DNA of 64,000 nucleotides from Euglena gracilis (taxonomy: Eukaryota): assembly GCA_039621445.1 (NCBI GenBank), contig CP154954.1, positions 24,874,954-24,938,953 of the forward strand, given 5' to 3'. How positions within the stretch are numbered: the stretch's first letter is position 1; each line of letters starts with the position of its first letter. The notes below the pieces were generated by a model. The model searched no databases. It was given only the letters and a program-made list of their open reading frames with translations, and was not told where the DNA came from. A program made the translations under genes and the position numbers. Below are positions 3,301 to 55,300 of this stretch, one piece after another.

Positions 3301-6300
3301 CCAGTTACTTCGGCCAAGACAACTTTGGTGGTTGTTTTTTTGCCAACCATCCCTCTAAGGGAGTGGGTTTGGGCCACAAACCAGTCAGTCACTCTGAAAA
3401 ACCAGTTACCCACCCCAGGGGGAGGGGGTCATCCAATGTCTTTCGTGATTATATGCACCTCTCCCAAACTTGGGGAGAATGCGGATATTTTTCCAGGTTT
3501 GTGGATTTTGCAGTAATTATGCGGGATTATGCAAAAAAAAAATGCAGCTAAAAGTTTGCAAAATGGCTGGAGGGGGCTCAGAAAACCCCATTGGCACTGA
3601 TATGCAAAATCAGAAACCTGCAATTTCGACCAAAAATTCTGGCCCAAAATGATCCAAAAGTGCCCGATCCAACGTTAATGAAATCTGTCCAAAATGACAC
3701 GAAATGGCCCAAAATGAACTAAATTGCCCCAAATTGATAAAAAAAAAGGGGGGGATTGTGTGTGGAACTGTGCATAAAACAGGGGATTCAATCGTAAATA
3801 TAAACCCCCGAAAAACAACACCAATGGACCACCAAAAGAGGGTCTAAAAAAGGTCCAAACAGCAAGATTTTGCACAATGAACAAAAATTGTCTCAAAAGA
3901 TGCCAATTTTGAAACATGGAAAGTAGTAGAAATCAAAAAGAAAACAAAAACAAAAAACACCCCTTTCATTGCATTTTCAATTCTAGGAGGTTCATTTTTT
4001 ATATGGGTGGACCCCACACCCTCCATCAATGAAACTTGGGGGCATGATGTGCATTTTTTCCATGAAGTGAAAGGAAATAAAATGCAATAAGCCTGGAAAT
4101 GGCACGAATGTTCTGCAGACAAAGCCGCAAAGAGAACCTCCCATCGCCCCCTACCCTGGACTGTCCGGAGAAGGCGGTGGGCAGGTGCCCTCCGGCAGCG
4201 TTGCCAAGAAGTACAGCGCCAGGCTGCCAAGACCGAAGCCGTCCAGATCCCCCATTGGCAGATTGCGCCACCCCTTCCCAGGGCAGATCAGGAAGGTCTG
4301 GCGGGGGGGGGGGTCGACCCCCACCACCCACCATGGCATTTTCACAGATTTTTTAAACAAATTTTTGGGGTCGAAAATTGGTGCTCCTGGAAATACGGGA
4401 GGAGGTAGTGGTGGGGGGGGTCGCCCCCCCCTCCACCCTGGCTGTTTGGCCGATTCCCGTTCTGCCCTGTCCCTTCCCAGGATTTTTGTGCCTCCAAGTT
4501 TGGGCAGAAAGTTCATTGTCCAAATGGGCCAGGAACAAACGGCAGCCTGGGCAGGGAGAAGTCGGAGAAGTGGCGCTGAGAGAGGGCAGCAGGGACCGTG
4601 GCCAGCGGTGAGTCCGCTTCCTCCATGATTGGCATTTTTCTACCCCCCCCCAAACAGAAGGGCAGGCCCTCTGCTGGGCAGGGTGCAAATGGAAGGGCAT
4701 TCCCCGTCCAGCGAGCGTCCACTACAAGGGCAGCCCCCCAGTGGACAAACCAAGAGAGGCACAGGCAAGCATTCAGTGGAGTTAAGCCGGGTGACAAACA
4801 GGAAGTTGTAACCGTAATCAGAAAAAAAAATTCATGAAATCCAATGTTTGCATTTCAGTCGGAAAATTTCCCGAAACAATAGCCGCCCCCATGGCTCCCT
4901 GGCTGGAAACATCGCTCTATCACAAGAACCCTGCTACTTGGGGGGGGGTCAAGGACATCACAGAGTCCCTGGGTGAGGGTCATGCCCAGCCCCTGGTAGA
5001 ACGCGAGCGACTTCACCGGGTCCCGGACCCGGAGCATCGTCTGAGCGAAGTTGTACTTGCCGGCGTGGCCCACCGCCACTCCTCGCCGGACGATCTCCAC
5101 CCAATACCTGTGGGGAGGGGGGATGCAACTCGGGTGGGGGTTTGGATGGCAACATCAACGGCGATATGGGGCACACACTTAGGGACTGTCATTCTGCTGC
5201 AGCACAAGCATCGGAAATCAGGCTTTCCGCTGACCAACAACAACAACAACAACAACAACAACAACAACAACAACAACAACAACAACAACAACAACAACAA
5301 CAACAACAACAACAACAACAACAACAAAACCACCACCACCACCACCACCACCACCACCACCACCACCACCACCACCACCACCACCACCACCAACACCAAC
5401 ACCAACAACTACAACAACAACTACAACAACAACAACGACGACGACGACGACGACGACGATGACAACAACAACAACAACAACAACGGTGGGAGTTGAAACC
5501 CTGGGGCCCAGCGTGCCGCCGACACACCCATCGGGGTCGTACGCGAAGGCGAGGCCCTTCATCCGCCCTTCGTTGGGCCGCTTCTTGAACGACACCCCGG
5601 CCACCTCGAGCTCCGCGCGGGGCCAGAGGCAGCCCCGCCTTCCAGCCGTCCTGGCCGCCCACCCTGGTCGTGAATAAACAGAACCCTGGCAGCCTTGCAG
5701 TGCCTTCCCCACCCCGATTGGGGCCCTGCACCGCGGCAACGAACTCCCCCGGCCTGCCCCTGTCAGCACGCCTCAACATCGTCACACGCCACTGCAATGT
5801 GGCCGAACCCATCGCCGGGGTTGTTGCCCGCGTAGTACGAGAAGTCCGCTTGAGACTCGTCGGCAGGGAAATCTCAGTCCCACAAGGGGGCATGGGGGAG
5901 GGGTGGAAAGCGTAATCGATATCAATGACGCAACTGCTTCCTCTGCCTCCATTTGGCAATGAGTTCCAGTTGTGTCAGTGGAGAGAAATTTCTTCGAATA
6001 GCTCAAAATGGTGGAAATCCCCACACCCAAATGACACCCCCAGTGGGCCACTTTGATGGTCAAATGATGGGGGTTGTGTTGGTCATTTTTGAATGCCTTT
6101 TACTGGGCCTGCGTTTTTGAAGGGGCATGACACATTCACTGTACCACGGGGCTGAACTTTGGAAGAGCTGTCAAAACTGAAATCGCCAAAAAAAAGAAAT
6201 TGAGGACAGGTTCCAAAATGCACTCCAAAAGTTGATGTGCGGCACACCATCCATGCACATTGTGCACACTGAGAATCTTTCGATGAAATTTTGGCTAGAA

Positions 6301-52300: not shown

Positions 52301-55300
52301 GAACGACTTCATAAACATGTGGTGCCTTCGATGCAGGTTAAAGCATTTGTGTGTGGTGTGGGTGGGTGGGTGGGTGGGTGGGTGGGTGGGTGGGTGGGTG
52401 GGTGGGTGGGTGGGTGTGTGCAGTGCATGAATAAATTAGTAGAAATCCTTTCACATTGTTTTGGTGAACAGAAAATCCGACCCAAACTCTTCCTGATGGT
52501 GTGAGAGCATTCAACAAGAAACCAAACAAGCATACCCGAAGCAATGGATCATATACTGTTTGTGTATAGATAAGAACGAGGTCTTTGCAAGCCTGAGAGG
52601 AGTTATTGTTAAAAGATGGAAATGAAATGATAAATTATGCAAACCAAAAAAATAGCAAATAAAGAAATGTGTTCACCGGACAAATCCTTTTTGGAACTCT
52701 TAGCATAAAGTTCTGCTGTGATGGACCCCCCCCTATTGTTGTGGATGTTGGGAGGGGGTGTCCAGACCCCCTCCCCCTCCTTGGCAGGTTCCAAAAGCAG
52801 CGAAAATTTTCTTCTGGCACTGTGCGCTGTGCGCTCTGCCCTTAAAGTGAACAAAAGTTGCCCCTTTTCCTCACTTATGAGCATATTACACATTTTGATG
52901 CTTTGGTGTTTCCCACACAAAAAGCGTCCAAAAATGAGTCATTTTGGATTTGTTTTGAAAGAAAATCAAGACTTCCCATCAATTCTTCCCTGGTATCCGG
53001 CCTTTCGTCCGTCCATATATCCGAAATTTTCCTGGCCCCCTTCAGTTTCGCTGTAGGAGGGGTGTGGTCCGACCCTCCCCCCTTCCATGTTTGGAGGGGG
53101 GTCCAGACCCCCCCCCCAGGCTTCCCATACATCCCTGCCCCTGGGAGCACCGAAAAACCTGGCGGGGGGGGGGGGCAGAAAAACAGTTGGTTTCTGGGCA
53201 CAGATTCTCAACGATCCCTGAAAATAGTGTCAAATAACCTGTCACGGGTGAACGGCAAAAGGATAGTTCCAGTGGCCTGGCACCCTGCAGGTAATTGGGG
53301 GGGGGGGGTGTTATGTTGCACATCCAATGCACCCTGATTTGATCTTTGAGGTGACACAAAATCTCTGTTCTCTCCTCTATGAACTGGCTGCAAATATACA
53401 TACATACATACCGACAGACAGACAGACAGACAGACAGACAGTTAGACAGACAGACAGACAGACAGACAGACAGACAGACAGACAGACAGACAGACAGACA
53501 GACAGACAGACAGACAAACAGACAGACAGACAGACAGACAGACAAACAGACAGACAGACAATTCAACACACACCCCACCTGCTTCGAAAACGAAGGGCTT
53601 CCCATCTATCCCTGGCCAGGGGGAAAAGGTCCCACCAGGTCATTTGGGGGGGGGGTTCAGGGAGGATTATATAAATGATTCTCTCAAATTTGGTGTTTTC
53701 CCCCGCAGCATCAGAATTGCTAACGGAGGTTGCTAGAAATTGCATTTCAAGCTCCGTGCCCACCTTGCCAGTCAATGTGTGGCAAAATCAAAGGCTTCAA
53801 AGTGGTGTCAATGCATCGTATCCTTGAAGGTCTCTGTTGCAGCTGCAAACCCAATTATCCTCCAGACTCTTAAAAGAAGCCTTGAGGATCAAATTAATTT
53901 GAAGCCCTTAGGAAATCCAAAAAAAACAGCAGCGACAAACAACGCACTGCATCTTACGCAAATCAAGGGAGAGGTGGGTTGTGATTCACCAAAGGTGTTC
54001 TCCAGCGTTGTGGTGATTTCCAATGTGAGGACTCATTTCCAGTGAGCAAAGGGGGGGAACAAAGGGAAGAAACACACGTGAAAGATGAGTAAAGCACATA
54101 AAATTGAGATGATGGAGCTGATTGTCTGCAAGATGAAGCAGAAGAAACCCAAAAACTCAAATTCCACACGTTTTATAAACACTTGACAACCTTTGCAGCA
54201 ACGACACAGTTCATAGTTTTGCCTTCTCTGGCAAAAAAAGGCTGCTGGAAATACCAAACGTCCCAGGAATTCAACCCACGTTCTGTGGGGTACTCAAAGC
54301 TATCTTTTGGGCAACGAGTTTGGTTGGCGGATTGAAGAGGACTGTTAAAAGAACCAAACCAAAAACAACATCCCAATCCCATGGAGATTTGGGCCCGACC
54401 CAGGTGTCTGGGGGGAGAATATTTTTGGGAACCACCATCAGTTCTCTGACTCCCTTCGCAGCCAGCACACTCTATTCGCAGCCAACTTCAACTGCCACAG
54501 GGGGCTGCAAGAAATTAAAAAAAAAACCAAAGAGGTTGGTCGTTCATCCCGCCTAAAAAAAAATCTGGTGCTGGCAGCTGCCAAACAGAAAATGTGGCGG
54601 ATAGGGGGTTTCGTGTAATTCTGGGTGTGTTCTCATTTCCCAGGGGCAGGGCGGTCCTTAAGCAAATAATAATAATAATCGCTGTCCCAGCACACTCAAT
54701 GAAAATATAAAGGAAAATGGGTAAAGAAATTTGGCATCCTTCGGTGAGAACAGGTCGACATCAGGGGGAAAAACTGGTTCTTAGCATCCTTGGACCATCG
54801 CCCATCCACCCAAATCATCATTTGGACTTTTTAATTTTGGACCCCGTTCAAGTCCCAGTCCGGTCCTTGGTCGGTCCTTTGGCCGAAAGGGGGGCGGTCC
54901 TTAAGAAAATAAAAGAAAAAACTTTTCTGTTCCTTAGGACCGCCCTGCCCAGGGGTCATCCCGTGGGGGATTCACAACTCCTTGCCGTGCTTTGGAGGGC
55001 CAAAAGCATCAAGGTCCGGCCTTTTCTGGGTTTCAACCGGCAGTTCAAAACCCTGTCCCTAAAATGAAACTTGTGTCCCTTCGCACAGTGCAAAGGAATG
55101 GAAAAGGCTGCAGGTGCCTAAGAAAATGGTTGGGCCAGAGCAGGCTGAATTTGAACTAGTTTCTGGTCCACCGAATTCAGGACAGAACTGGCATTGCTCC
55201 ATCTGCATGACGGCGGCGGCTCCGTCCAAAATAAGAAGGGTGACCAAAATGTCAGAAAAACAGCCAGAAAACGTTTGTTGAAATCCGCATCTGATTCTGC

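Follow-up and report, generated by a model that had tools for sequence, protein, structure and literature searches.

Do the nonconventional introns of euglenids descend from a class of short DNA transposons? This question is raised by a stretch of 64,000 nucleotides of Euglena gracilis (contig CP154954.1 of assembly GCA_039621445.1, positions 24,874,954 to 24,938,953 of the forward strand), which is referred to here as the window. [quoted passage not shown] In the window, we identified at least 14 non-autonomous cut-and-paste DNA transposon copies of this type, 125-765 bp long, most of which begin with CAGG and end with CTG, and which are flanked by a target-site duplication (TSD) of 8 bp. This length is the sum of the two spacers, of 3 and 5 nt, that separate the cuts from the terminal motifs in nonconventional introns.

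Three minus-strand genes of the window were mapped with euglenid proteins: a copy of a two-domain glyoxalase I (GLO1), a Shewanella-like metallophosphatase (SLP) and a membrane-protein gene (gene 3). On the strength of these genes, we take the window for nuclear DNA. They contain 26 introns, 15 of which are GT/GC-AG, 7 fit the nonconventional code and 4, namely SLP intron 6 and GLO1 introns 3, 5 and 6, are odd or ambiguous. Junctions were obtained by enumerating all in-frame donor/acceptor pairs and by scoring the joined translation against P0098 (record EG_transcript_13994) for SLP, P0129 (record EG_transcript_13169) for gene 3, both being transcript-named records, or GLO1 homologs. The GLO1 and phosphatase exons were picked out by eye in a periodicity ranking of the frames.

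MITEs with CAGG ends and an 8-bp duplication

The 14 elements (M1 to M14, Table 1) are real MITEs: they are short, they have inverted-repeat ends and a duplication of fixed length, they belong to multi-copy families whose members lie in differing flanks, and an empty site was found for one of them. A preliminary description of this DNA had reported 12 of them as belonging to several families. We found six small and old families and one singleton, with a within-family identity of 68-83%. Families A (M2 and M12), B (M3, M9 and M11), C (M1, M4 and M8), E (M6 and M10) and F (M13 and a decayed copy at 10.1 kb) are complemented by family D, made of M5, M14 and a fragment, in which M5 and M14 are joined solely by their common terminal ~13 nt, with no BLAST match between them. 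Each of the 12 starts reported earlier could be given a partner end, and the scores attached to their flanks were all reproduced exactly (8/8 for four elements, 7/8 for four, 6/8 for three and 5/8 for M2; Table 1). Two elements come in addition, M7 with a perfect duplication and M10, which scores 5/8 in register with an apparent one-base slip. The 5' end is CAGG in 13/14 elements, the exception being M8 with CGGG, and the 3' end is CTG in 13/14, the exception being M2 with CCGG. The terminal repeats are ~5-17 bp long, and 10-13 of the 14 terminal bases are complementary in every element except M13 (7 of 14). In the decayed relative of M13, the duplication is no longer present by our reading of the alignment. 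The core of family C had no match in a metagenome scan, and no Rfam family reached its gathering score in the window. Four elements, M2 to M5, lie inside 1.6 kb (14532-16135) with spacings of 56, 470 and 78 bp, an arrangement that may reflect a hot spot for insertion.

The duplication is exactly 8 bp long. Over the 14 elements, the identity of the two flanks reaches 0.86 at k = 8 and does not exceed 0.40 at k = 3-7 and 9-12; position by position, 11-13 of the 14 elements agree within the 8-bp register and 1-8 beyond it. The duplicated 8-mer is not a property of the family, as the three copies of family B carry unrelated ones (ggcggggt, gcttcaaa and gtccagag). Moreover, the flanks of M14 recur in the window with one CCCAGGGG and no element (Table 1), and it is therefore the insertion that made the 8-bp duplication. 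The DNA that hosts M14 is itself a dispersed repeat (40765-40906 and 54546-55035, 74% identity over 144 nt), and one of its copies lies in intron 7 of gene 3.

The same class of elements emerged from an unbiased scan of the window for inverted-repeat pairs (at least 10 matches out of 12, 60-3000 bp apart), with shifted flanks as controls. A flank identity of at least 7/8 was found for 5/67 pairs starting with CAG, compared with none in the shifted-flank controls, and for 4/3781 non-CAG pairs, compared with 5.25 expected. The excess in CAG-starting pairs is significant (Fisher p = 1.6e-7), and CAGG...CCTG with 8 bp is the sole class of inverted repeat and duplication in excess within the window. 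The scan is to be taken as a test and not as a catalogue, because its filters missed 9 of the 14 elements. Among the non-CAG pairs, an apparent excess of flank matches at k = 8 and k = 10 was rejected, since it consists of repeats of one palindromic unit (~47.0-50.0 kb) and not of duplications. The palindromic units TGCGCGCA and TTTGCGCAAATG and their relatives, which mimic flank matches, occur in many copies at ~47050-49950, inside the 4.8-kb intron 1 of gene 3.

The inserted elements and the nonconventional splicing code

Knock-ins served to define the nonconventional code, 5'-N3CDG...CH'GN5-6|R, which suffices for the splicing of synthetic 50-bp introns (PMC12501133). By its sequence, and in the light of these experiments, an element taken together with its flanks is laid out like this code: 3 nt of spacer, CAG, a paired stem, CTG, 5 nt of spacer and a purine. 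Elements and flanks match the code in 12/14 cases in the plus orientation, in 8/14 in the minus orientation and in 13/14 in at least one of them. CAG and CTG are paired in the minimum-energy fold of 12/14 elements in the plus and 10/14 in the minus orientation, and in that of 5/7 code-fitting introns.

Euglenid nonconventional introns thus resemble the elements in having CAG at +4 to +6, CTG at -8 to -6, a terminal stem, 3- and 5-nt spacers and an acceptor exon that begins with a purine (PMC12501133). The resemblance extends one base inwards, since G/C at +7/-9, which is frequent in nonconventional introns and was reported for 31/55 introns (Milanowski et al., PMC4770533), parallels the CAGG...CCTG of the elements. 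In the window, introns of the form N3-CAG...CTG-N5, which had been announced for three genes, were recovered in all three (SLP introns 1, 4 and 8, gene 3 intron 5 and GLO1 intron 2); these five CAG-type introns all start with CAGG and four of them end with CCTG. The remaining two of the seven code-fitting introns are variants, SLP intron 9 with CTG...CAG and GLO1 intron 8 with CGG...CTG. Introns and elements differ in that the introns of the window are single-copy and have no detectable duplicate, whereas the elements are multi-copy, have 8-bp duplicates and lie in non-coding DNA.

The arithmetic at the heart of the preliminary description is correct and strand-symmetric: cuts placed 3 nt upstream of CAG and 5 nt downstream of CTG remove the element together with one duplicate (3 + 5 = 8). 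Excision of M14 by this rule leaves a sequence that is identical over 14 nt to the empty-site paralog (ATTTCCCAGGGGTC), the joint being ATTTCCCAG|GGGTC. Position 6 of the duplicate would become the first base of the acceptor exon after the predicted excision, where the published code demands a purine; on the plus strand, this position is a purine in 12/14 elements.

A proposed transposon origin of nonconventional introns

We can propose the following scenario. Each insertion of an element made an 8-bp duplication around its CAGG...CCTG ends. From a copy that lands in an exon, in either orientation, the RNA would be cut at the two positions given above, upstream of CAG by 3 nt and downstream of CTG by 5 nt, and the excision would take the element and one duplicate, so that the reading frame is exactly restored. 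Old introns would have shed both the family likeness and the duplicate. Because excision would restore the frame in either orientation, we regard this class of elements as the most likely source, or a co-evolved partner, of the nonconventional introns, and on balance we favour this proposal.

Going further, and with slightly less confidence than an even chance would warrant, we suggest that the dominant MITE class of Euglena and its non-spliceosomal splicing might form one system, in which a machinery reading the terminal stem would exactly reverse a DNA insertion at the RNA level, whatever its orientation. Elements could then land in genes without harm, and this would account for the majority of Euglena introns being nonconventional and "slidable". 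By their geometry, the two predicted cuts are staggered by 2 nt and leave a 3' overhang on the excised hairpin. RNase III-type enzymes leave such a pattern and are, by this analogy, a candidate class for the excision enzyme.

If true, one assumption would cover the 3/5 offsets, the pyrimidine|purine consensus at both junctions, the high share of slidable introns and the 8-nt repeat at a new intron. The window provides real MITE families whose ends carry the exact motif and whose duplication is as long as the two experimentally fixed spacers together. Should the link hold, the question of the origin could be tested simply, on public intron catalogues and with the existing knock-in assay.

A maize Ds insertion, that is, a non-autonomous hAT element, was reportedly spliced from pre-mRNA as a de novo intron (an observation attributed to Giroux et al. 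in 1994), its removal by the spliceosome at cryptic sites being said to be inexact. The elements of the window differ from Ds in that exact restoration is predicted from their geometry. The introner elements of Micromonas and other organisms are MITE-like DNA transposons that bring splice signals with their ends and target duplicates and that instantly turn into introns upon insertion in an exon; they differ in being removed by the spliceosome as GT/GC-AG introns with duplicates of ~3 nt (PMC11282704), whereas here the reader would be non-spliceosomal, would recognise CAG and CTG, and would split an 8-bp duplicate into 3 + 5.

That nonconventional introns arose from MITEs in general terms had been suggested by the preliminary description as an idea already in circulation, and it is indeed in print. 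A MITE-like origin was proposed from the terminal inverted repeats (PMC3935182) and restated several times (PMC12501133, PMC12621601 and PMC11170887). "TSD-like" repeats were reported at intron junctions (PMC11282704), a newly gained gapC intron of E. agilis has eight-nucleotide direct repeats at its junctions that were ascribed to break repair (PMC4770533), and in E. agilis, direct repeats at the junctions make 84.4% of the introns slidable (PMC12501133). In the literature searched, from which subscription papers and supplements were out of reach, we found neither the 8-bp arithmetic, that is, an equation of the 3 + 5 spacers with the length of a duplication, nor a named MITE family of euglenids that combines CAG...CTG ends with duplications of 8 bp. 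The general form of the hypothesis is thus already published; the interpretation given here is geometrically exact, consistent with published experiments and able to explain several published oddities, and we consider it partly supported.

Search for converted elements in the window

Several results of the window weigh against this origin. None of the 14 elements interrupts a coding sequence: no gene was found around M2-M8 and M14, and the five elements that lie in mapped genes are all intronic, M10, M11 and M13 in GT-AG introns, M9 in SLP intron 6 and M1 in GLO1 intron 5. No convincing coding-like open frame runs across the predicted excision joint of any of the 14 elements, and, measured against 2000 random positions, the 95th percentile was exceeded solely by the joint of M2 in the minus orientation, with just 12 + 17 codons. 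Clustering of introns against MITE families, which had been put forward as a check, identified 0/9 nonconventional introns as family members by BLAST; the matches were G/C runs and nested copies, namely M9 within SLP intron 6 and, inside SLP intron 9, a fragment that resembles M5. The expected excess of 8-nt flank identity was not found either, the seven code-fitting introns having 20/56 matches (36%; 5, 3, 3, 3, 2, 0 and 4 per intron) compared with 94/280 (34%) in shifted controls. Furthermore, SLP intron 6, which is nonconventional and backed by a transcript-named record, is spliced at other offsets, and the CTG...CAG ends of SLP intron 9 are beyond the reach of a CAG...CTG element in either orientation.

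The flank test neither supports nor refutes the link, because it has low power with only seven introns, which are probably old. In the proposed description of the locus as a candidate introner system, the geometry is exact and strand-symmetric as claimed, and no case of conversion was encountered: within the 64-kb window, no family copy serves as an intron of a coding gene, which is how introners are recognised. M9 and M11 were also considered as makers of splice sites and were rejected, since P0098 puts them 37 nt and 27 nt inside their introns.

The relation of M1 to GLO1 intron 5 may be more intimate. The junctions of this intron are ambiguous. A rule-conforming version, ACC-CAGGG...CCCTG-GGAAG (4974..4274, minus strand, 701 nt), links exons 5 and 6 in frame; a 728-nt alternative has no known motif and matches the homolog length better. 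On the minus strand, M1 lies between CCTG-GGAAGGGA upstream and GGAAGGGG downstream. The last 5 intron bases and the first 3 exon bases of the 701-nt version make up the duplicated 8-mer of M1, GGAAGGGG. The acceptor layout of this version, CCTG + GGAAG | G, would predate the insertion of M1, and either copy of the acceptor, with M1 excised separately, would yield an identical mRNA. With roughly even chances, and provided that the 701-nt reading is right, M1 may have landed exactly in the 8 bases that follow the CTG of an older intron and thereby regenerated its 3' signal.

Superfamily of the elements

The elements had been called hAT-like. This label is a reasonable guess rather than a finding, and their transposase may belong to hAT or to another family that makes 8-bp duplications. 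Like hAT-superfamily MITEs, they have an 8-bp duplication, short terminal repeats and a CAG start, which in several families is CAGGG. In 5/14 elements the start is CAGGC, whose fifth base departs from the consensus of hAT ends. No transposase domain was found in a Pfam scan of 40 open frames of the window, which returned two weak sub-threshold matches only. The target pattern of the Ac family, nTnnnnAn (PMC8961557), is matched in both copies by 4/14 targets, compared with ~0.8 expected (p = 0.0075), and 10/14 do not match it.

The hAT label is unproven, as Merlin elements that make duplications of 8 bp were reported in E. gracilis (PMC8101967). We consider it unlikely, though a serious contender, that the elements are no relatives of hAT and were moved by Merlin or another 8-bp superfamily, which would affect the label and leave the arithmetic as it is. 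The lack of a hAT transposase among the 40 frames and the five CAGGC starts would fit such an origin. So would the two Merlin families of E. gracilis, the only DNA transposons of this species with 8-bp duplications in the literature searched, as the Merlin-type duplication of 8-9 bp is found here. Against Merlin, its ends are described as starting with GG (PMC8101967), whereas 13/14 elements of the window start with CAGG and one with CGGG, and the partial match of the targets to nTnnnnAn would speak for hAT.

Alternatives to a transposon origin

CAG-type ends are common among DNA transposons, and it can be asked whether the elements and the introns have any causal link. The elements would then be ordinary intronic or intergenic MITEs, the introns would derive from break repair or from the conversion of conventional introns, and the shared ends and the matching sum would be coincidental. 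That no MITE-derived intron and no flank excess were found in the window is what would be expected in this case, and the 8-nt repeat was itself ascribed to double-strand-break repair by Milanowski et al. (PMC4770533). We nevertheless judge a coincidence to be improbable, considering that no class of inverted repeat and duplication other than CAGG...CCTG with 8 bp is in excess in the window, that the chance of matching four terminal bases together with the exact spacer sum can be roughly estimated at well below 1 in 100, and that the published slidable introns and 8-nt repeat fit a transposon origin.

Less probable still is a reversed causality by survivorship, in which splicing would be older than the elements and only those transposon families that mimic its code would persist near or in genes; they would add introns without having founded them. 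This would account for the nonconventional introns of the window that have other ends (CTG-CAG, CGG-CTG and off-rule), for the fact that 61.2% of E. agilis nonconventional introns match the code while the rest do not (PMC12501133), and for the related noncanonical introns of diplonemids (PMC12621601). The window is silent on which came first. The equality between duplication length and spacer sum is easier to account for if the cuts evolved on inserted elements. Finally, it is very improbable that the "elements" are nonconventional introns spread by reverse transcription and reinsertion of excised circular RNA, with no DNA transposase involved: full-length circles of excised nonconventional introns were reported (PMC11282704, citing Guminska 2021), and such a circle would hold one 8-mer between CTG and CAG, but the unrelated 8-mers within family B fit a target duplication and not an 8-mer carried along, the empty-site paralog of M14 shows one pre-existing 8-mer that was then duplicated, and most copies sit where there is no exon.

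Genes, introns and other features of the window

Table 1. Mobile elements, genes and selected introns (positions are those of the window)
Feature	Position	Strand	Description
M1	4279..4469		family C, 191 bp, CAGGGCAGA...TCTGCCCTG; TSD ccccttcc/tcccttcc, 7/8; within GLO1 intron 5
M2	14532..14808		family A, 277 bp; TSD 5/8; decayed 3' end CCGG
M3	14865..15118		family B, 254 bp; TSD 7/8
M4	15589..15770		family C, 182 bp; TSD 6/8
M5	15849..16135		family D, 287 bp; TSD 6/8
M6	19983..20422		family E, 440 bp; TSD gttgcgag, 8/8, matches nTnnnnAn
M7	21482..22246		765 bp; TSD atctggac, 8/8; absent from the preliminary description
M8	23940..24157		family C, 218 bp; 5' end CGGGG; TSD 7/8
M9	31077..31344		family B, 268 bp; TSD 6/8; within SLP intron 6, 37 nt from the 3' end of the intron
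M10	33466..33954		family E, 489 bp; TSD 5/8, one-base slip; absent from the preliminary description; within SLP intron 2 (GT-AG)
M11	34172..34442		family B, 271 bp; TSD gtccagag, 8/8; within SLP intron 2 (GT-AG), 27 nt past the GT donor counting the 8-bp duplicate
M12	36741..37226		family A, 486 bp; TSD 7/8; starts ~126 nt beyond the stop codon of gene 3
M13	38531..38655		family F, 125 bp; TSD gtacgaga, 8/8; within gene 3 intron 8 (GT-AG)
M14	54647..54947		family D, 301 bp; perfect 12-bp terminal repeat; TSD cccagggg, 8/8
Decayed M13 relative	10107..10239		family F; 5' end AAGGCC; mean column identity 79% (alignment including flanks)
M14 empty-site paralog	40765..40906	+	single CCCAGGGG at 40844-40851, without element
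Gene 1, two-domain glyoxalase I (GLO1) copy	379..8041	-	euglenid homologs; introns 1, 4 and 7 GC/GT-AG
GLO1 intron 2	6536..5859	-	N3-CAG...CTG-N5
GLO1 intron 8	766..455	-	N3-CGG...CTG-N5
Gene 2, Shewanella-like metallophosphatase (SLP)	29173..34949	-	11 exons; P0098, Pfam PF00149; introns 2, 3, 5, 7 and 10 GT-AG
SLP intron 1	34912..34671	-	N3-CAG...CTG-N5
SLP intron 4	32323..32245	-	N3-CAG...CTG-N5
SLP intron 6	31455..31040	-	off-rule, P0098-backed, non-slidable; N3 + GATGTCTC...GAGACATC + 7 nt (not 5); holds M9
SLP intron 8	30358..30276	-	N3-CAG...CTG-N5
SLP intron 9	30228..29662	-	N3-CTG...CAG-N5; perfect 10-bp stem CTGGCCCGGG; decayed family D-like (M5-like) fragment inside, ~29704-30036
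Gene 3, membrane-protein gene	37356..50459	-	9 exons; P0129; hydrophobic stretches, no Pfam family on record; 7 introns GT/GC-AG
Gene 3 intron 5	41869..41403	-	N3-CAG...CTG-N5

The exons of SLP are 89-100% identical to P0098 exon by exon, exon-edge overhangs aside, and the core exons of gene 3 are essentially 100% identical to P0129. The exons used to place the junctions of the nonconventional introns were about 93-100% identical to these two proteins. For GLO1, the closest relatives of exon 1 are euglenid proteins with 78-83% identity, including a named Eutreptiella protein, and no near-identical transcript-derived protein was present among the matches of this copy. GLO1 intron 3 has a CAGGGGCAG/CTGCCTCTG stem, yet the frame demands offsets that are one or two bases off the rule. 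In addition to this frame trouble at introns 3 and 6, a segment "LPEG..PPPS" is doubled (4160-4228 and ~3065-3110). The GLO1 copy may be a decaying paralog or may bear homopolymer assembly errors, and its introns were given less weight for this reason.

Long microsatellites are also found in the window, namely (AG)57, a GT-rich repeat of ~600 bp, (CAA)83, (AT)78 and (ACAG)41, together with one 167-bp tandem repeat; these repeats occupy 1437-2788, 5235-5484, 39993-40148, 53398-53560 and 16956-17324. Finally, the plus strand is purine-rich across most of 4-48 kb, with positive GC and AT skew, and the three mapped genes all lie on the opposite, minus strand.

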